Part shown: positions 2,805 to 13,695 of the stretch, one piece after another
Layout of the letters: each line of letters opens with the position of its first letter
Position numbering within the stretch: the stretch's first letter is position 1
Assembly: GCA_016184305.1 (NCBI GenBank)
Contig: JACPCX010000148.1
Location: forward strand, 1-14,324
From: Candidatus Rokuibacteriota bacterium
GTDB taxonomy: Bacteria; Methylomirabilota; Methylomirabilia; Rokubacteriales; CSP1-6
Reading direction: 5' to 3'
DNA: 14,324 nucleotides
Notes under the pieces: generated by a model
What the model was told of the DNA's origin: nothing
Database searches by the model: none
What the model saw: only the letters and a program-made list of their open reading frames with translations
Program-made: the position numbers and the translations under genes

Positions 2805-5528
2805 ATGAGCAGGAGATCTCTGGTGTCAGTGGTGGGGTGCATCATCCTGGCCGGGCTCGCAGGCGCGATCCATGGCGCTGCGGCGGCGGAGCCCAGGATG
2901 GACGACGCGGTCAAGCTCTTCAAGGCGGAGAAGCTCGTCGAGGCCGAGAAGGCCCTGGGCGGCATCCTCGCGAAGTCGCCGGACGCGATGGATGCCCGTC
3001 TCCTCATGGGGTGGAGCCTCTGGGGCCAGGGGCGCTACGACGAGGCGCTGGTCCGCTTCAAGAGCGTGCTGCGCGAGGCCCCGGCCCAGCGCCGCCCGAC
3101 GACGGACGAGATAATCACCTTCAACATCGCCTCCGATGTCACCGCCATCAACAACCCCGACCTGGCCTCGGCCCGGAAGGGGCTCGGCTGGACCTACTTC
3201 AAGAAGGGGTGGATCCGGCTCGCGGGCGCGCAGTTCACCTCCCTCAACAAGCTCTCGTCCAACTGGGACGAGCCGTACCTCGGGCTCGGGTTCGTCTATC
3301 TCGCCCACGGAAAGTTCAACGAGTCCGAGGCCGCGTTCCGCGAGTACCTGGCCAAGACCCCGTCGGGGACGAACAAGCCCCACGAGGGCGCGCGCGGCCT
3401 GGGTGATCTGTTCGTCGCCAAGGGCGATCCCGCGAAGGCGATTCCGCACCTGGTGACGGCGCTCAAGGGAAAGCCCGGGTGGCTGGAGGTGCAGTCGCTC
3501 CTGGCGTGGAGCTATCTCCAGACGGGTGACTCCGCCAAGGCCGCGGAGATCTTCAGTCAGCTCAAGACGGCGCGCCCGGCCGAGGCCGAGGCGGGTCTGG
3601 CGTGGGTGGCCCTCAAGCGGGACCGGCTTGACGAGGCCGAAGCGGGATTCGGCCGCGCGCTGGTCGCCCTCCCGGGCTACGGCCGGGCGCTCGAAGGGAT
3701 ACGCGAGCTCCGCGGCAAGCGCTACAAGGCCTTCGACGAGGCCTGGGCGCTCTATTACGGAGGCAAGAATTCCGAGGCCGTGGCGGCATTCGAGCGGCTG
3801 AGCAAGGAGCCGGGGCGGCTGCCCGATACCATGAAGCCCCTGGTGCTCAATGGGCTCGGCTGGTCCCGGCTCGGGCTCGGCGAGGCGGAAGAGGCCGAGA
3901 AGATCTTCCAGGAGTCGCTGCGCCAGCTTCCGAACGGCGCCGAGGCCACGGCCGGCCTCGGATTCATCGCATTGCGCCGCAAGGAGTGGGAGAAAGCCGA
4001 GACGGCCTTCGTCCAGGCCAACGGGACCATCCCCGGCCTGGCGGCGGCGAACAATGGCTTCGCCGCGCTCCGCGCCGCGCGCTTCGGCCCGCACGACCGG
4101 GCCTGGGAGCTCTTCTATCTCGGCAAGCCCGAGCAGGCCATCAAGGCCTTCGAGGCCCTCCTGGCCAGCCCGGGTGACTTGCCCGCCGCGACGCTTCCAT
4201 TCATCCGCGGCGGCATCGGCTGGTCCCAGCTCGCGCTTGGCAAGGTCGATAGCGCCGAGGAAACCTTCAAGCAGATCCGGCCCGCCTCGAAGATGGAGGA
4301 GGCCGAGGCGAAGGCCGGCATCGGCTGGATCGCGCTCCGGCGCAACCAGCCCGAGCAGGCCCAGAAGCTCTTCACGGAGGCGCTGACCGGCGCGCCCGGC
4401 TACGCCGCCGCCCTGCGAGGGTTCGCCGAGCTGAGGCGTGTGCGCGCGCCCGAGCTGGACGTGGCGTGGGCCGCGTACAACCAGGGCAAGTTCGGGGACG
4501 CAGCGCCCATGTTCAACAAGGTGATCGAGACCGCCGGGCTGCCGGCCGAATACGTGCGGGAGGCCCGGCGCGGGCAGGCCTGGAGCCTCTACTACGGGGG
4601 CACGCTCCAGAATGCCGCCGACGAGTTCGAGAAGCTAGTCAAGGCCGGCGAGGACGCCGATGTCCTGTACGGGCAGGGGCTGGCTCTGGCCGGCCTGGGC
4701 CAGCACGGAACCGCCGCTCCCGCGCTCGGGCGCGCCGCCGCGCTCGTCCCCGGCTCCCTCGACTACCAGGCCGCCCACGGCCGAGCGCTGCTCGCCAGCG
4801 GCGATGCCAAGGGGGCCCTCGCGGCCTTCACGGCGGCCTACCGGATCGCTCCGGCCTCCGCCGAGGTGAATCGGATGCTCGGCTGGACCTACGTGAAGCT
4901 CAACCGGCCGGCGGAGGCCAAGGCGGCCTTCCGCTACGCCCTGACCCTGATCCCGGGCTACTCGGACGACAAGCCCTTCCGGGAGCTGACAGGCAGCAAG
5001 GATTACCGCGATCTCAGGGGCGACCTGGCCTGGGGCTATGTCAGGTGGCAGGCCTTCGAGTCCGCGCGCAAGCTCTTCGAGGAGATCGCCAAGGACGACG
5101 CGGCCGACGGCAACGCGTGGTTCGGCCACGGCTACGCCCTCTACAAGCTCGGCAAGACCTCCGAGACCGAGGCGAGCCTCAACCGCGCGCTCAAGGCCAA
5201 GCGCCGGGCGGAGCACCGCACGGTGTGGGTCGTGTTCCCGGAGTCGGGCAGCTACCCGGTCCTGACCGACGTGCAGTCCATTCTCGGCTGGGTCTCGCTG
5301 GTGGCGGGCAAGTGCGAGCAGGCCGTCGAGCGCTTCGACGCCTCGCTGGACCGCGACCCCGACCTGGTCGCCTCGATGGTGGGCAAGGCCATCTGCCTCG
5401 CGAAGAAGGGCGAGCACACCGCCGCGCGGGAGATTTACCTGACGGCGCAGGAGGTGTATCCGGCCTATCCGCCGGTGCTGGCCGGGCTCCGCGCGACCGA
5501 GCCGAAGAAAACGGCCGAGATCCGCTGA
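2805..5528 (+). CDS. Large secreted/periplasmic tetratricopeptide-repeat protein (~907 aa)
   Basis: SD GGAGGAG before ATG 2805. Sec-type signal peptide MSRRSLVSVVGCIILAGLAGAIHGAAA. Many TPR-like units with recurring (G/L)LGW..Y and A...F..AL...P. Confidence 0.9.
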   Translation: MSRRSLVSVVGCIILAGLAGAIHGAAAAEPRMDDAVKLFKAEKLVEAEKALGGILAKSPDAMDARLLMGWSLWGQGRYDEALVRFKSVLREAPAQRRPTTDEIITFNIASDVTAINNPDLASARKGLGWTYFKKGWIRLAGAQFTSLNKLSSNWDEPYLGLGFVYLAHGKFNESEAAFREYLAKTPSGTNKPHEGARGLGDLFVAKGDPAKAIPHLVTALKGKPGWLEVQSLLAWSYLQTGDSAKAAEIFSQLKTARPAEAEAGLAWVALKRDRLDEAEAGFGRALVALPGYGRALEGIRELRGKRYKAFDEAWALYYGGKNSEAVAAFERLSKEPGRLPDTMKPLVLNGLGWSRLGLGEAEEAEKIFQESLRQLPNGAEATAGLGFIALRRKEWEKAETAFVQANGTIPGLAAANNGFAALRAARFGPHDRAWELFYLGKPEQAIKAFEALLASPGDLPAATLPFIRGGIGWSQLALGKVDSAEETFKQIRPASKMEEAEAKAGIGWIALRRNQPEQAQKLFTEALTGAPGYAAALRGFAELRRVRAPELDVAWAAYNQGKFGDAAPMFNKVIETAGLPAEYVREARRGQAWSLYYGGTLQNAADEFEKLVKAGEDADVLYGQGLALAGLGQHGTAAPALGRAAALVPGSLDYQAAHGRALLASGDAKGALAAFTAAYRIAPASAEVNRMLGWTYVKLNRPAEAKAAFRYALTLIPGYSDDKPFRELTGSKDYRDLRGDLAWGYVRWQAFESARKLFEEIAKDDAADGNAWFGHGYALYKLGKTSETEASLNRALKAKRRAEHRTVWVVFPESGSYPVLTDVQSILGWVSLVAGKCEQAVERFDASLDRDPDLVASMVGKAICLAKKGEHTAAREIYLTAQEVYPAYPPVLAGLRATEPKKTAEIR

Positions 5529-5746
5529 TGGACCCGCGCTTTCTCTTCAAGGAGGACTGCGGAGACGTGTTCACCCTGAATTCCATGGGCGCGCTCGTCC
5601 ACCGCCTCTACCGGGAAGGGGCGGCGCCGGAGGACATCGCTCAGCGGCTGGCGAGATCCCACGGGATCTCGCCAGCCCGGGCGCTCGGCGACGTGCTCGC
5701 CTTTCTCGCCCAGGTGAGGATCCATGGACTCCAGTCCGCATCGTAG
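5528..5746 (+). CDS. Stand-alone PqqD-family / RiPP recognition element (RRE) protein (72 aa)
   Basis: ATG overlaps the TPR stop (TGATG). MDPRFLFKEDCGDVFTLNSMGALVHRLYREGAAPEDIAQRLARSHGISPARALGDVLAFLAQVRIHGL fits the PqqD pattern G..FxLN..G..(I/V).....G....EI...L...Y.V....A..DV..FL..L...GL. It is the last 72 aa of ORF-track 4466..5746. Confidence 0.82.
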   Translation: MDPRFLFKEDCGDVFTLNSMGALVHRLYREGAAPEDIAQRLARSHGISPARALGDVLAFLAQVRIHGLQSAS

Positions 5747-6801: not shown

Positions 6802-7911
6802 ATGAGCGCGAAGCCGACATGGGTGGGGATCACGGGCATCACCTCGGCGGACGAGCCGAGCGCCGGGCTGGCCGCGGCGCAATCGCTCAAACGGGGGCCC
6901 GGCGCCGCGGGCTTCCGCGTCGTGGCGCTCGCGGAGAGCGCCTTCTCGGACGGAATCCAGGCCGTGCCCGCGGCCGACGAGGTGGTCGTGGTGCCCTCGC
7001 CCCAGCACGAGCCGGAGGCCTTCGTCGCGGCGGTCCGCGAGCTGGCTCGCGGCCGGCGCTTCGTCCTGCTGGCGGGCTCGCCGGCGGACGTTGTGGCGCT
7101 GGCGCCTCGCCGCGACGCCCTCTCCCAGGCGGGCGTCCGCCACATGCTCCCGTCGCCCCGTCAGGTCTCGACTCTGCCGTTTCTCGGGGTGGCGAGGGTC
7201 GCCGGGTTGCGAATCCCACGCGGCACCGGGCTCGATCCCGCGAGCGTCGGAAGGCTAGCGCTCCGGCCGCAGTCCTGGCCCCTGGTGCTGCGGACCACAG
7301 ACGGGCGCCTGGCCTCGGCCGCCACGCCCGCCGAGATCCCGGCGCTGGCCCAGGCGCTGGCTCGCCCCTGGGGCATGGTGACACGCGCCCACGAGCCGGT
7401 GCTGGGGTCGGAGATCAGCGTCGCCGTCCTGTGCGGCGGCCACGGGCGACCGCTGGGGATGGCCGCGGCGATACCGCTCCAGCGCGGCGGCAACGGGGCT
7501 GTCTGGTCCGCCGTGACGACCGCCGATCCAGGGGTCCTGGCTGCCACGCGGCGCATCCTCGATGTCGCGCGCTGGACCGGCCCCGGCGAGCTTCACCTGA
7601 TCCGCGACGAGGGGGGCGCGCTCTGGTTCACGGGCGTGACGCCGGGCTTCCCCTCCTGGATCTCGCTGGCCGCCGCGGCCGGCCGGCCGCTGGTCCACCA
7701 GTACCTGGGCCTCTGCCTCGGGGCGGCGCCGCTTCTCCCCGGGGCGTACCGGGACGGCCTGTTCATGTCCCGGGTGGCCATGGACATCGCGATGCCGATC
7801 ACCACGCTTGGCCGACTGGCCACCGAAGGAGCCTTCTCCCATGACACACACCACGCAGGAACGCTACGAGCGGCCCCTGATCATGCGGCGCGAGCTCGGG
7901 TCGCTCACTAA
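6802..7911 (+). CDS. Degenerate ATP-grasp paralog, probably catalytically inactive
   Basis: Colinear with the preceding gene: VGITGITSADEPSAG vs VAITGLAASDNPGPG, WTGPGELHLIRD vs WVGPAELEMIRD, and FTGVTPGFPSW vs LIEINPRFPAW. Confidence 0.8.
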   Translation: MSAKPTWVGITGITSADEPSAGLAAAQSLKRGPGAAGFRVVALAESAFSDGIQAVPAADEVVVVPSPQHEPEAFVAAVRELARGRRFVLLAGSPADVVALAPRRDALSQAGVRHMLPSPRQVSTLPFLGVARVAGLRIPRGTGLDPASVGRLALRPQSWPLVLRTTDGRLASAATPAEIPALAQALARPWGMVTRAHEPVLGSEISVAVLCGGHGRPLGMAAAIPLQRGGNGAVWSAVTTADPGVLAATRRILDVARWTGPGELHLIRDEGGALWFTGVTPGFPSWISLAAAAGRPLVHQYLGLCLGAAPLLPGAYRDGLFMSRVAMDIAMPITTLGRLATEGAFSHDTHHAGTLRAAPDHAARARVAH

Positions 7912-9277
7912 GCAGTGGGGCGGCGGGGGTCCCGGCGCCCCCCCCATCGCCGTCGGTGAAGCGGTGGACGGCGTCAGCGCCCAGAGTCTGAAGACCAAGT
8001 ACGGCTCTCCGCTCTACGTCGTGTCCGAGGCCACGCTGCGGAAGAATCTCCGCGGGTTCCTCTCGGCCTTCCGCTCCCGCTATCCCGAGACGGTGTTGGC
8101 GTACTCGTACAAGACGAATTACGTGTCCGGGATCTGCGCCACCCTCCACCAGGAAGGGGCGTGGGCCGAGGTGGTGTCCGGGTTCGAGCTGGAGCGCGCC
8201 CGCGCGCTGGGCATGCCCGGGTCCCAGATCGTCTACAACGGCCCGTACAAGCCCTTCGATCACCTCCTCGAGGCGGCGCGTCTCGGCGTCCGGATCAACG
8301 TGGACAACCTCGAGGAGCTGGCCGACCTCGAGGAGGTGTCGCGGCAGCTCAAGCGCCCGGTCAAGATCGGGATCCGGGTGAACATGCGTCTCAACGATCC
8401 GCCGTGGGACAAGTTCGGCTTCAACATCGAGTCGGGCCAGGCGCTGGAGGTGTGCCGGAGGATTCACGGCTCGAAGCTCCTCCGGCTCGCGGGCCTGCAC
8501 CTCCACGCCGGCACCTATCTCGCCAACGTGGAGATCTACAAGCGCGCCATCACCGGGCTCCTGGAGCTGGCCATGACCGTCGAGGCGCAGCGCCTGGGCG
8601 ACATCGAGTACGTGGATCTCGGCGGCGGATACGCCTCGCGGAACACCATCCTCAGCCAGCTCCTGCCCGGCGAGATGACGGCGCCGAGCTACGCCGAGTA
8701 CGCCGAGGCCATCTCTGCCCCCCTCAAGGCCTGCGTCAAGCGGCTGCCCCGCCGCCCGCTGCTGATCCTGGAGCCGGGTCGCGCCATCGTGGACGATGCC
8801 GTCACCCTCCTGGTGAGCGTCGTGGCAGTGAAGAAAACCCCCGACGGGCGGACCCTGGTCGTGGTGGATGGCGGCGTGAATCTCCTGCCCACCGCCTACT
8901 ACTTCAGGCACGACGTGGTCGCCGGGCGCGAGGTGGACGGAGACTCCGCGCGCGTGGACATCGTCGGACCCCTCTGCATGCAGATCGACGTGCTGCGGCG
9001 GGACGTGTCGCTGCCCCCGGTCAGCCGGGGCAGCATCCTCCTCTTCCGTAACGCCGGCGCCTACACGGTCTCCAACTCGATGCAGTTCATCTACCCGCGG
9101 CCTCCCGTCGTCGTCGTCTCCGGGCGGCAGACGCATGTGCTCCGGCGAGGCGAGCGGACGGAGGACCTGGTGCGCCTGGACGAGATGCCTGCCCATCTCG
9201 CGCCACGGTCCGCGGCGTCGAGCCGGAATGGCCACAAGACGGCCCGCGCGAACGGCAACGGGCGAGGTCACAGCTGA
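7841..9277 (+). CDS. Fold-type III PLP-dependent decarboxylase (diaminopimelate/ornithine decarboxylase family), substrate unknown
   Basis: YGSPLYV, AYSYKTN (PLP lysine codon at 8111), EVVSGFE, YNGPYK, KFG, HLHAGT, DLGGG, EPGRAIV, VDGG, GPLCMQID and AGAY. SD AAGGAG at 7826-7831 precedes ATG 7841. Confidence 0.9.
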   Translation: MTHTTQERYERPLIMRRELGSLTKQWGGGGPGAPPIAVGEAVDGVSAQSLKTKYGSPLYVVSEATLRKNLRGFLSAFRSRYPETVLAYSYKTNYVSGICATLHQEGAWAEVVSGFELERARALGMPGSQIVYNGPYKPFDHLLEAARLGVRINVDNLEELADLEEVSRQLKRPVKIGIRVNMRLNDPPWDKFGFNIESGQALEVCRRIHGSKLLRLAGLHLHAGTYLANVEIYKRAITGLLELAMTVEAQRLGDIEYVDLGGGYASRNTILSQLLPGEMTAPSYAEYAEAISAPLKACVKRLPRRPLLILEPGRAIVDDAVTLLVSVVAVKKTPDGRTLVVVDGGVNLLPTAYYFRHDVVAGREVDGDSARVDIVGPLCMQIDVLRRDVSLPPVSRGSILLFRNAGAYTVSNSMQFIYPRPPVVVVSGRQTHVLRRGERTEDLVRLDEMPAHLAPRSAASSRNGHKTARANGNGRGHS

Positions 9278-11472
9278 ACTTCTGGCGCGCGGTGCTCAGC
9301 GGGGCCGGCCAGGTCCTCTGTGCCGCGTCCCCGAAGGCGGGGGCGTGGTTCCTCCTGGCCTTCGCCCTCTTCTCGCCCGAGGCGGCGCTCGGGGCCGTCC
9401 TGGGCCTGGTGGTCGCCACGGGGATGGCTCGCGGGCTCGGCTGGAACGAGTTGCTGCTCGGCCAGGGGCTGTTCGGCTACAACGCCGCCATGCTGGGGCT
9501 CGCCTGGACGGCGTTCTTCCCGCTGCCATCACCGGGCTTCCTCCTCGTGCTGCCGGCGGCCGCCGTCACGACCTGGCTCCACGGCCGCCTGCTGCCCCCC
9601 TTCGGCCGCCGGGAGCTGCCGGTGCTCGGCCTCCCGTTCGTCCTGGTGGTCTGGGGTGCCGGTCTCCTCTGTGTGGCGCTCGGTGTCGGGCAATTGTCTC
9701 CGATCATCCCTCCCGCGATTGCGGGTCCGGGGGCGGGCTGGACGACTCCGGCCCTCAGGGCCGCCGCCGCCTCGTTTGCTGTCACCTCGCTGCCGGGAGC
9801 GGCGGCTGCCGCCATCGGGCTCTGGTGCGTGTCGCGGGTGGCTCTCGGCGTTGCGCTCGCGGGCCTCACCCTCGGGCTCGGGACTGCCATGCTCCTGGGG
9901 GGCGTCGAGGGGGTGCTCTGGATGGGCGGCTACGCGTACACGGCGCTGCCCGTGGCGGTGGGGACGGCCGGCGTGTTCTTCCCGCTGAACGCGCGGATGC
10001 TCGCCCTCGCGGCCGCGCTGTCGGTGGTGGGCGTGGTGGGATGGGTGGGCCTCGTCTGGGCCCTGGCGCCCATCGGACTCTTCGCCGTCACCGCGGTCGC
10101 CCACGCCCTGGTGCTGGGCCTGCTCATCGCGGCGAAGAGCCGCGCGCTCTCGGCTGCCCTGGGGATCCGCCCGCGACCCCTCTCCGAGGCGGCCCTGCCC
10201 GGAGGGCTCGCGGAGGTCGTGGCGACAGGGCCGTTGCCCGAGGCCGAGATCAGCGAGCTCGTACGGCTGATCCGCCGGTCCTCGAGCATCGTCGTGCTCT
10301 CGGGGGCGGGCATGAGCACCGAGTCCGGCATTCCGGACTACCGGAGCCAGACCGGGTTCTGGTACGACGCCAATGCCGAGGCCCTGACCTACTCTCGCTT
10401 CCTGGAGTCGGGATTTTCCCGGCGCCTTCACTGGCGGCTCCATCGGCGATTCAGCCGCGCGCTCGGCCGGGCGCGGCCGAACGCCGGCCACCGCCTGCTC
10501 GTCGATCTCGAGCGCGAGGGGAAGCTCCTCGGGGTCATCACGCAGAACGTGGACGGCCTGCACCAGGCGGCGGGCCTTCCGGAGGCGCGCGTGGTCGAGC
10601 TGCACGGCAACGTCACCGAGGCGGTGTGTCTCCGTTGCGAGGAGCGGCTGCCGTCAAAGTCCGTCCGGCCGCGAGGATGGTGGAAGCCGCCCGCGTGCCC
10701 CGGCTGTGGCGGACCCCTCAAGGTCGACTCGGTGAGCTTCGGGGAGGATCTCGACCCGAGCCGGCTGGCGCTGGCGGCCTGGTGGTCTCGAAGCGCCGAC
10801 CTGATGCTCATCCTCGGGACCTCCCTGCAGGTGGCGCCGGCGTCGAACCTCCCGGAGATGGCCCGGGAGCGAGGCATGCCCCTCGCGATCGTCAACCGGA
10901 CTGAAACCCGACTCGACCCCTGGGCGGCCCTCGTGGTGCGAGGCCCCGCGGCCCGGGTGCTCGAGGAGGTGAGGAGGCGCCTCATGACTGCTCCCGTCCC
11001 GCGACTGATCCGCCCCATGACCCGGCTCGACTTCCTCCACCTGTGCAGGGTCGTGGACTCCTGGTGGAACGATCAGGTCCGCTACCTGCTCCATCCCCTC
11101 TACCTCGAGCACTTCCCGCAAACCTGCTTCGTCTGCGAGGAGGCGGGGGACGTGGCCGGCTTCCTGGTCGGGTTCATCTCCCAGGGGCGCCCCGAGGAAG
11201 CGTACGTGCACCTCGTGGGCACCGCCCCGGCCTCCCGGGGCCAGGGGATAGGGCGGGCGCTGTACGAGCACTTCTTCGAGGTGGTGCGCAGCCGCGGATG
11301 CGTCAAGGTGCTGGCCATCACCGTGCCCCACAACGAGGGGTCGCTGGCCTTCCACCGCCAGATGGGCTTTCGGTTCCGGGAAGAGGGCGGAGCATGGGCC
11401 GGGACGGTGCCCCTGGTCCCCGACTACGCCGGCCCTGGCGTTCACTGCGTGCTCATGGAGCGGAAGCTGTAG
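9274..11472 (+). CDS. Fusion protein: urea-transporter-like membrane domain + Sir2/sirtuin NAD-dependent deacylase + YqjY-like GNAT acetyltransferase
   Basis: UT-like part: [30 protein letters not shown] and many hydrophobic helices (to ~10140). Sirtuin: [43 protein letters not shown]...CPGC, GTSLQV, IVN. GNAT: DSWW...[10 protein letters not shown]...[20 protein letters not shown]...[10 protein letters not shown]...[13 protein letters not shown]...DYAGPG. Start is either CTG 9274 (proposed) or GTG 9292. Confidence 0.85.
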
Positions 11473-11539
11473 CGAGGGAATCGCGGCCGCCGAGGAAGTT
11501 GCCAATCCGGCCGGACTCGGGCTAAGTTTGACATGCCCT

Positions 11540-12880
11540 ATGGACCGACCGCGAGTTCTCGTTGTGGACGACGAGAAGATGATCCGCGAGATGCTCGCGG
11601 AGGCTCTCGCCTCGTGGGGGTACGAGGCCTCCACCGTGGGCAGTGCCGAGGAGGCGCTGGAGGCCCTGGCCCGGAGCCTGGTTGACGTGGTGCTCCTCGA
11701 CATCATGATGCCGGGCATGAGCGGCATCGACCTGCTCCGCGAGATCAAGCACCGGGACCTGGACGTCGACGTCCTGATGATGACCGGCCGCCCCACGGTG
11801 GAGACGGCCGTCCAGGCCTTGAAGGCGGGCGCCTGCGACTACCTCGAGAAGCCCCTGAATCTGGACGTGCTCCGCCACCTCATGGGCGGAGTGATCGAGC
11901 GGCGACTCCTCCGGCAGGAAGTGCATGCCCTACGCGCCCGCGTGGGGGACCAGCTCGGCGCCATGGAGCTGGTCGGGGTGTCGGACGCCATGCAGCGGCT
12001 CCGGGACCTCATCGACCGGGTGGCGAGCAGCGACTCCCCGGTCCTGATCGAGGGCGAGAGCGGCACGGGCAAGGAACTGGTGGCGGGGGCCATCCACCAC
12101 CGGTCGCCTCGCGGCCGCGCCCCGTTCATCCCGGTCAACTGCGGCGCCATTCCCGCGGATCTTATGGAGTCCGAGTTCTTCGGCCACGCGCGCGGCGCCT
12201 TCTCGGGTGCGGTGGCCGATGCCCTTGGCCTGATCCGCTCCGCCCACGGCGGCACGATCTTCCTCGACGAGATCGCCGAGCTCCCAGCGGCGCTGCAGGT
12301 CAAGCTCCTCCGCGTGCTCCAGGACACGGAGGTGCGTCCCGTCGGCTCCGTCAAGACCTTCAAGGTGGATGTGCGCGTGATCGCCGCCACCAATCAGAAC
12401 GTGGAGCAGGCCGTACGGGCCGGCACCTTCCGCCAGGATCTCTTCTATCGCCTCAACGTGGTGAGCATCCTGGTCCCGCCCCTGCGGGAGCGTCGGGCGG
12501 ACATCCCGCCCCTGGTGACCCACTTCCTCCGCCAGCTCAACCAGAAGCTCGGCCGGCGGGTGAGCGGGGTCGGGCCGGCCGCGATGGCGGCGCTCATGGG
12601 TTACGACTTTCCCGGCAACGTGAGGGAGCTGGAGAACCTCCTCCATCGCGCGTACGCTCTGGGCGCCAGGGAGGAGATCACGCTCGAGGATTTGCCGGTA
12701 CTGCAGTCCCGCCCCGAGGAGCCCGAGCCGGCCGGGGGGCTGCCAACCCTCGCGGCGGCCGAGCGAGAGCTCATTCTCCGGGTCCTTCGCCACCACGGTG
12801 GCGACAAGGACCAGGCAGCCCGGGCGCTCGGGATCTCCCGGCGCACCCTCTACCGCCGGATCGAGGAATACGGCGCCTAG
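11540..12880 (+). CDS. NtrC/AtoC-family sigma54-dependent response regulator (REC-AAA+-Fis HTH)
   Basis: [15 protein letters not shown] (phospho-Asp), [11 protein letters not shown] (Walker A), ESEFFGH..GAFSGA, IFLDEI (Walker B), [21 protein letters not shown] and [16 protein letters not shown]. Start is ATG 11540 or TTG 11528. Confidence 0.95.
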
Positions 12881-13281: not shown

Positions 13282-13695
13282 ATGATCGGGCGCTCAGCGC
13301 TGGCAAGAGGCCGTCTTCACTGGGTCCTGGTGGTCGACCAGGACGAATCCGTAGCCGGCTCCCTGGCCAGGCGCTTCCAGGAGCGGGGCCTCACGGCCCA
13401 CGCCACCGCCTCCGGCAAGGAGGCATTGCGGCTGGCGAGCCTCAGGAAGCCGACCCTGGCCATCATCGACCTGATGCTCGGCGACATGGGAGGCGTGGAG
13501 CTGGCCCAGCGTCTCAGGGAGCTCGACCCGGAGCTGGCCATGGTCGTGACGACGAGCGATCGGCGCCCGGCCCTCGAGGTCGAGGCCCGGAGGGTGGGAA
13601 TCGTTCACTACGCCCACAAGCCCCTCGACCTCGACCGGCTCGACGCCGTCATGACGAGGGCCATCCACACCCTCGAGCGAGGAGATCACAGATGA
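13282..13695 (+). CDS. Single-domain response regulator (CheY-like receiver)
   Basis: VLVVDQD, ASGKEAL, AIIDLMLGDMGG (phospho-Asp), VVTT and YAHKP. Confidence 0.88.
   Translation: MIGRSALARGRLHWVLVVDQDESVAGSLARRFQERGLTAHATASGKEALRLASLRKPTLAIIDLMLGDMGGVELAQRLRELDPELAMVVTTSDRRPALEVEARRVGIVHYAHKPLDLDRLDAVMTRAIHTLERGDHR

Follow-up and report, generated by a model that had tools for sequence, protein, structure and literature searches.

In the biosynthesis of lasso peptides, the B1 protein, a recognition element (RRE) for peptides made on the ribosome and modified after translation (RiPPs), recognizes a leader in which Tyr stands at position -17, Pro at -14, Leu at -12 and Thr at -2, the pocket for the Thr being partly formed by the RRE (PMC10368454, available text). 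LppB holds the Tyr of its leader by a hydrogen bond from D70, and the Pro by N33, which fixes the kink there, and F74, which sandwiches it (PMC13381572, available text). The present work concerns an operon within a stretch of 14,324 nucleotides from Candidatus Rokuibacteriota (contig JACPCX010000148.1 of assembly GCA_016184305.1), referred to as the window. It encodes, on the forward strand, a discrete 72-residue RRE of the PqqD family (PF05402; 5528..5746), an ATP-grasp ligase whose start overlaps the RRE stop (ligase 1, PF15632; 5724..6797) and a 478-residue pyridoxal phosphate (PLP)-dependent decarboxylase of the alanine-racemase fold (PF02784/PF00278; 7841..9277), which carries a lasso-like YxxPxI motif at its own N-terminus. 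The operon resembles the lasso B1 proteins (TbiB1, 5V1U/5V1V; TfuB1, 6JX3; PbaB1, 9X90) and LppB (9X8Z) in the Pfam family, the closest solved relatives and the pocket residues of its RRE, as well as in the Tyr/Pro/aliphatic spacing of the presumed ligand and the conservation of one residue at -2. However, the "leader" is here the N-terminus of an enzyme, the residue at -2 is Lys and not Thr, neither a B2 peptidase, nor a cyclase, nor a separate precursor is found among the operon genes, and the partner enzyme is an ATP-grasp. The operon thus probably works like the recognition of a leader by lasso B1, but it is not a lasso pathway.

Other described systems share parts of this arrangement. In the butirosin pathway, BtrJ is an ATP-grasp ligase, glutamate is tethered to a carrier and the decarboxylase BtrK (7RU7) is related to ours; yet the carrier, BtrI, is a separate protein of 87 residues charged as a thioester, whereas the carrier proposed here would be a Lys in the tail of the decarboxylase itself, to which the RRE would give access, and none of the operon genes matched a carrier-protein family in a Pfam scan. 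In rhizoferrin synthesis (FslA/FslC or FigA/FigC), ligation is likewise followed by decarboxylation and FslC/FigC is the best PDB match of our decarboxylase family (E 1e-97), but the ligase is an NRPS-independent siderophore (NIS) synthetase and not an ATP-grasp, the intermediate is free, no RRE takes part, and our enzyme scores under the FslC cut-off. According to the available text of PMC7857480, BtrK acts on carrier-bound glutamate and FigC on the free ligase product. The borosins, as far as their available description goes, also have a precursor fused to a pathway enzyme, although in them a methyltransferase modifies its own C-terminal core, which is released, and there is no discrete RRE; no methyltransferase was found by the Pfam scan among the operon genes. 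Graspetide cores contain conserved Ser, Thr or Lys donors and Asp or Glu acceptors, and they are modified by a RimK-like ligase; here, 141 dereplicated tails show no conserved acidic residue from past Tyr+1 to Tyr+23, and ligase 1 is not RimK-like, its matches being of the ATPgrasp_Ter and PRK12767 types. The leader of QhpC is removed. Precedent for an RRE engaging the N-terminus of a protein, including that of an enzyme subunit, is provided by QhpD/QhpC and CrpC/CrpA (PMC13692751, available text), but their RRE is fused to a radical S-adenosylmethionine enzyme that forms thioether cross-links. Finally, in fosfazinomycin biosynthesis (FzmZ/FzmA/FzmT) a YxxP peptide and a discrete RRE serve as scaffold for a small non-peptide product; the peptide is, in contrast, a separate one of 22 residues modified at its C-terminus, and the discrete RRE is dispensable in vitro (PMC13622209, available text). 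No paper on the present cassette was found in the literature searched by combinations of gene names, which covered few subscription journals; supplements, such as that of PMC12710340, could list the RRE group.

A conserved tail on the decarboxylase

The first 33 residues of the decarboxylase (7841..7939) form a tail that, according to an AlphaFold2 model and to PDB relatives, lies outside the LysA fold. The tail contains the sequence YERPLI (Tyr9-x-x-Pro12-x-Ile14; 7865..7882), a candidate RRE recognition sequence by its conservation and lasso-like spacing, and a second conserved element, Gly20...Lys24 (7898..7912), with the family consensus G-x-x-N-K-F-G; the YGSPLYV of the LysA-fold core lies at residues 54-60 (8000-8020). 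The N-terminal sequence, the Gly/Pro linker and the YGSPLYV string quoted in an earlier reading of the DNA made from the sequence alone (the sequence-only reading) are all in frame from the ATG at 7841. This reading had named a true start downstream of the motif as a finding that would count against it. However, a Shine-Dalgarno site, GAAGGAG (7825..7831), is found 9 nucleotides 5' of the ATG, and in 12/12 close relatives compared the corresponding Met is likewise preceded, at about the same distance, by a purine-rich GGAG or GGGG, so that the start is placed upstream of the motif and a later start codon is ruled out by the conserved ribosome site together with the conserved upstream Met. Database proteins that start past the motif correspond to loci that contain it (P0009 vs L099).

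In the AlphaFold2 monomer, pLDDT averaged over ten-residue blocks is 57, 49 and 37 for the first three, no secondary structure appears before residue 38, and the tail remains of low confidence despite a 51-row alignment. Since, in addition, the PDB relatives align only from profile position 30 onward, the tail is regarded as an addition to the decarboxylase fold. A search of the ESM Atlas with residues 1-45 gave a top score of 0.87, which is a lead only, and six tails scanned against NCBIfam (E<=10) matched none of the lasso-leader models, the two weak matches obtained (E 0.04-0.08) being to an unrelated family. In the window, the last 71 nucleotides of a second, degenerate ATP-grasp gene (6802..7911) overlap the start of the decarboxylase in a different frame; the possibility that the motif is conserved as a by-product of that frame was discarded, the overlap extending past the Tyr codon in only 8/128 loci.

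Conservation of YxxPx(I/L) in homologues, which the sequence-only reading had proposed to examine, was borne out. Among 121 proteins longer than 250 residues from a homologue search, query included, the pattern [YF]xxPx[ILVM] is present in 98, and the 23 misses are mostly gene calls starting at or past the motif, with seven true losses and one miss of the regular expression; alignment A1, chosen from tail-bearing proteins, is not an independent count. In a set of 174 loci from genomes and metagenomes, 162 of the 171 parsed carry [YFW]xxP, as do 46/46 loci from 401 genomes of one phylum, and motif and Lys occur in 116/116 parsed tails of 117 loci from two other classes (401 + 201 genomes). The background rate is low: in the genome to which the window belongs, [YFW]xxPx[ILV] falls within the first 30 residues in 44/3203 long six-frame open reading frames (ORFs), or 1.4%. 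Tyr9-x-x-Pro12-x-Ile14 is therefore far above chance, and the tail motif is kept across many phyla; the cassette is common, the enzyme being found in 46/401 genomes of the one phylum and in 86/401 and 32/201 of the two other classes.

The 141 dereplicated tails, in which Pro at +3 is present by definition, begin the motif with Tyr (81%), Trp (9%) or Phe (8%), and have Ile, Leu or Val at Tyr+5 in 98%, Gly at Tyr+11 in 80% (Gly20 in the window), Lys at Tyr+15 in 92% (Lys24 in the window) and Gly at Tyr+17 in 72%; past Tyr+17 the sequence is variable, and there is no conserved Ser in the tail, the residue type modified in the acyl-carrier protein of the butirosin pathway. The distance from the motif to the YGSP anchor is 40 residues in 90/141, within a range of 40-48. 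Two details of the sequence-only reading did not hold at this scale: of the "GS" said to follow the motif, only Gly20 is conserved, Ser being outside the six commonest residues at the next position, and the GGGGPGAPP linker is confined to the closest relatives of the window.

The tail and the RRE also travel together, a point that the same reading had proposed to examine. At 113 loci with at least 3 kb of upstream sequence, motif and RRE are both present in 104, the motif only in four, the RRE only in three and neither in two; one of the RRE-only loci (L039) is a parsing artefact, the other two being L022 and L105, and one motif-only locus (L004) has a cognate RRE elsewhere in the same genome. 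In the 401 genomes of the one phylum, all 46 enzymes are tailed, 44 are accompanied by an intact cognate RRE and two by a split or partial RRE in the operon, while three extra RRE matches consist of one at a contig end beside a ligase and two weaker, unrelated ones. The RRE gene lies 300 nucleotides or less upstream of an ATP-grasp in 126/128 loci, one of the two exceptions being a fused double ATP-grasp, and this proximity points to ligase 1 as the probable enzyme partner of the RRE; in none of the 136 first ATP-grasps compared does any of nine columns of catalytic type vary. By these comparisons of gene content, a lasso-B1-like RRE, an intact ATP-grasp and a tailed decarboxylase are shown to form a fixed cassette.

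The history of the tail was approached with a tree rooted on distant relatives, to which long-branch warnings apply. In this tree, a tail-less clade (P0123-P0129, P0149; L132) is sister to the tailed clade with a support of 99, and two tail losses are nested within the latter, so that the tail looks to have been gained once, and L132 is ruled out as an independent loss. One cluster member of the tail-less sister clade (P0123-P0129, P0149, P0154) is named from an Aenigmarchaeota archaeon. At L132 (1258-3419), a ligase and a decarboxylase are adjacent with no RRE between them, and the 5' end of the ligase looks broken. The enzymes of one close clade, 69-73% identical to that of the window, lie outside the operon, have lost the motif and have a changed, in part deleted, substrate loop, and two genomes of this motif-less clade (97-98% complete) contain only other RREs and none of the operon type. 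At L011 (7941-9302), L100, L120, L121 and L125, a paralogue that lacks the motif and has a shorter substrate loop is flanked by a DUF1464/ATP-grasp_3 cluster on one side and a menaquinone gene (PF02621) on the other; it is possibly a repurposed decarboxylase. On viral contigs (L395-L409), distant LysA-fold decarboxylases adjoin ATP-grasp-like genes; 0/15 of these contigs have the motif or the RRE, and the channel described below is absent.

Probable recognition of the tail by the RRE

Discrete RREs that recognize a YxxP peptide take it up by beta-strand addition. The window RRE matches PF05402 with 38.1 bits (cut-off 23.4) and is the only match to that family in its genome (89% complete). When the profile of its family was compared with solved structures, the closest were TbiB1 (2e-16) and TfuB1 (1e-12), followed by PbaB1, LppB and PqqD. 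Importantly, Asn18, Asp55 (5690-5692) and Phe59 of the window RRE align with N33, D70 and F74 of LppB, at the same spacings of 37 and 4 residues, and this pocket Asn, Asp and Phe are present in 105, 96 and 103 of the 113 paired loci. Judged by its profile and its pocket, the RRE of the operon is of the YxxP-binding type.

A second indication comes from the way in which the two partners vary. In 114 dereplicated tail/RRE pairs, the RRE Asp accompanies Tyr tails in 86/90 cases, Phe tails in 0/11 and Trp tails in 9/12; in fresh sets, it accompanies Tyr tails in 41/42 and 101/101 and Phe tails in 0/9. When the RRE Asp column was set against 745 decarboxylase and ligase columns, the tail Tyr was its top partner (z 6.3; next 4.6). 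A Fisher p of 9e-12 for the pairing of Phe with non-Asp was set aside, as it treats related rows as independent. The covariation is the pattern expected of a bond between the Tyr hydroxyl and the Asp and is suggestive of one, being, with about four independent events, not significant.

The third indication is that no separate precursor was found. The 22-residue YxxP precursor of fosfazinomycin was long overlooked (PMC13622209, available text), and a scan for short ORFs (12-100 residues, first start codon per open segment) was therefore made in 93 loci. It returned 89 motif-bearing ORFs, against 102, 98 and 95 for three scrambled patterns, at no recurrent position; the window contains only two, both of which are ends of long genes, and its genome has no precursor-like ORF. 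A hidden precursor of about 20 residues, as in fosfazinomycin, is thus ruled out at the level tested, and the earlier statement that no obvious separate precursor lies in the operon stands, motif-bearing short ORFs being no more frequent than chance in these loci. The sequence YEKPSV occurs in two short basic proteins of the same genome (C53:2057-2257 and C66:10041-10232), probably by coincidence, although they could be off-target ligands of the RRE; both resemble ribosomal bS21.

Taken with conservation, co-occurrence and co-loss, these observations make the YxxPxI tail of the decarboxylase the likely ligand of the stand-alone RRE, as the sequence-only reading had proposed. Several findings weigh against it. 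The motif is damaged despite an RRE in the operon at L022 (Tyr to Pro) and L105 (Pro to Met), and it occurs with no RRE nearby in three metagenome loci (L153, L155 and L161). The co-loss in the motif-less clade is a single event and is confounded, since this clade also altered its substrate loop. The Tyr/Asp pair is only ninth over all column pairs, the Asp is kept with most Trp tails, and Phe tails arose only once or twice. Well-supported branches supply just four pairs that are independent, and in these a change of the Asp in the same direction was counted about 2.5 times and one in the opposite direction never (sign test p ~0.25). In addition, the window RRE is without the first beta strand, its model having two strands and three helices. 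The cleft elements beta3 and alpha3 are present in this model. What stands of the proposal is thus a probable interaction deduced from conservation, shared presence and loss, pocket residues and covariation, the last of these counting as about four events.

Most members of the RRE family keep an extra N-terminal segment that the window copy has lost, and the window RRE falls outside the strict RRE definition given in the available text of PMC12710340. The closest relatives of the window (G221, G223 and G171; L097, L098 and L118) also combine the loss of strand beta1 with retention of the pocket residues, and represent a natural minimal RRE. No natural RRE fusion was found at E<=1e-8 among proteins of 185-2000 residues, which is weak evidence. 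At L200 (1363-1734; genome G251), a pyruvate kinase gene is followed by a solitary RRE of the operon type, which has a long N-terminal extension rich in Pro, Ala and Gln and lies apart from its ligase and decarboxylase. The three metagenome loci L153, L155 and L161 appear to be split operons, with the tailed decarboxylase beside TPR and envelope-type genes, or alone, and neither RRE nor ligase nearby.

Possible roles of the tail

The enzyme that bears the tail is not the housekeeping LysA, since it scores under the cut-offs of both LysA (TIGR01048, 251.5 < 297.9) and FslC (NF041039, 208.3 < 500) and its family occurs in 14/251 genomes of the class; a second LysA-fold decarboxylase was not found by tblastn in the same genome, which is 89% complete. 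The PLP-Lys motif is kept in 139/141 dereplicated decarboxylases and GxLCM in 133/141, and the family matches BtrK (7RU7) with an E of 1.4e-44. Downstream of it, 9292..11472 encodes a urea-transporter-like channel with, by domain matches, a fused sirtuin and a fused GNAT. In most relatives an M23 peptidase domain takes the place of the sirtuin on the channel (7/7 non-sirtuin fusions scanned), the sirtuins having intact motifs, and GNAT is fused in 11/25 sirtuin fusions. Sirtuin and M23 domains both cleave amides.

In the lasso register, the Lys of the family falls at -2 and the Gly that follows at +1, and the Lys would thus stand where an enzyme recruited by the RRE acts. We suggest that the tail is probably a RiPP-type leader that became fused to the decarboxylase and is left uncleaved. 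Briefly, the RRE probably binds YxxPxI in the cleft between beta3 and alpha3, with Asp55 holding the Tyr hydroxyl, and recruits ligase 1. Lys24 may serve as a built-in carrier arm, which is the least certain step: the epsilon-amine of this Lys would be joined by the ligase to a carboxylic acid, for which an amino-diacid is the most plausible candidate; the cargo so tethered would reach the PLP site and be decarboxylated there, as BtrK does on the carrier BtrI; and the amide-cleaving domain of the channel (a sirtuin in the window, an M23 domain in the majority of relatives) would release a small product at the pore. That Lys24 is such an arm is, taken as a whole, tentatively favoured over pure docking. 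The fuller scheme, in which a fused leader has become a permanent, RRE-addressed carrier arm that the ATP-grasp loads, the same polypeptide decarboxylates and a sirtuin or M23 amidase unloads, is proposed with somewhat greater reserve. The alternation of two unrelated amide hydrolases on the channel is counted for a carrier arm, as is the action of BtrK on a carrier-bound glutamate.

The sequence-only reading had left open whether the tail is an enzyme-fused precursor or a means of docking the decarboxylase onto the ligase. The Lys at Tyr+15 favours the first: it is found in 87/88 M23-type operons and in 46/46 of the one-phylum set. Its loss in sirtuin-type operons, the subtype of the window, favours the second: only 17/25 have it, and the eight replacements, five of them by Arg, argue against an obligatory acylation in this subtype and so weigh on the carrier arm.

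It is also possible, though we would put less on it, that the tail serves for docking only. The RRE would then grip both tail and ATP-grasp and so unite ligase and decarboxylase in a complex, within which a small-molecule intermediate would be channelled in free form, and G-x-x-N-K-F-G would be a second, unmodified contact surface, comparable to the lasso Thr(-2) in the pocket between RRE and peptidase. All the evidence for binding of the tail by the RRE applies equally to this alternative; the change of Lys to Arg in intact operons suggests that charge and not an amine nucleophile is needed; the closest solved relative, FslC/FigC, uses a free ligase product; and the tail-less sister clade represented by L132 adjoins the same ligase family with no RRE between (its ligase 5' end may be broken). 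However, a Lys as nearly invariant as this one (87/88, and 116/116 in M23-type tails) and a nearly fixed tail length exceed the usual needs of a tether, and an amide hydrolase fused to the channel in most operons is easier to explain by a cargo that is cut off its carrier.

Less probably, the tail could be a structural part of the decarboxylase dimer, folded onto the N-T-L substrate loop or the other subunit, its likeness to a leader being coincidental and the ligand of the RRE something else. Tail loss does accompany change or deletion of the substrate loop, the AlphaFold2 model is of the monomer only, and YxxP-like strings such as YEKPSV occur elsewhere in the genome; but this leaves unexplained why the first residue of the tail tracks the Tyr-binding Asp of the RRE, and why a YxxP-binding type of RRE is present with no other YxxP peptide, and all blocks of the tail are of low confidence in the model in spite of the depth of the alignment. 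Least probable of all is a regulatory or releasing role, in which the RRE would present the tail for acylation of Lys24 by the ligase or the GNAT and deacylation by sirtuin or M23, or in which cleavage near K-F-G would set the tail free as a small RiPP. The operon does encode a potential writer (GNAT) and eraser (sirtuin with intact motifs), the Gly in the lasso core-start register (Tyr+17) reaches 72%, and in QhpD an RRE serves to engage an enzyme subunit by its leader (PMC13692751, available text); but neither a B2 peptidase nor a cyclase turned up in family scans of the operon genes, the variable sequence past Tyr+17 offers no conserved core, GNAT is fused in only 11 of the 25 sirtuin fusions, and the notion that the sirtuin erases a mark on Lys24 is weakened by the fact that this Lys is least conserved precisely in sirtuin operons.

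Remaining genes and biological meaning

The operon begins with a TPR protein whose N-terminus is signal-peptide-like (2805..5528). The second ATP-grasp, which has no Pfam or NCBIfam match and is 30% identical to ligase 1, has its E-x-N-x-R changed to G-x-T-x-G in the window; with catalytic residues intact only in the first copy, the earlier mention of "ATP-grasps", in the plural, as modifying enzymes has to be narrowed to one, and the second may be a pseudo-enzyme partner. This second copy ranges from intact (L002, L003) to degenerate (the window) and is almost confined to sirtuin-type operons, and at L015, L017, L107 and L108 a ligase ORF of 714-762 residues covers the place of both copies, an apparent fusion. 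The sirtuin is a separate adjacent gene in a few loci (e.g., L002). The flanking genes look ordinary: a metallo-beta-lactamase-fold hydrolase on the reverse strand (335-1219) and, on the forward strand, NIPSNAP (1788-2405), a sigma-54 response regulator (11528-12880) and a receiver protein (13282-13695).

In the RRE-Finder survey, about half of some 8,000 matches to discrete lasso RREs were found without lasso machinery, and were considered possible false positives or members of uncharacterised classes (PMC7470986, available text). The present operon suggests that the ligand of an orphan RRE could hide in the first codons of what looks like an ordinary "lysA" gene, a place in which precursor tools based on short ORFs would miss it. 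The natural pairs of Tyr with Asp and of Phe with a residue other than Asp are ready material for a swap of specificity. Under either of the two leading models, carrier arm or docking, RiPP recognition would be used outside peptide maturation. If the carrier arm is real, the cassette would be a carrier-based assembly line with neither acyl-carrier protein nor separate precursor, present in many bacterial phyla.

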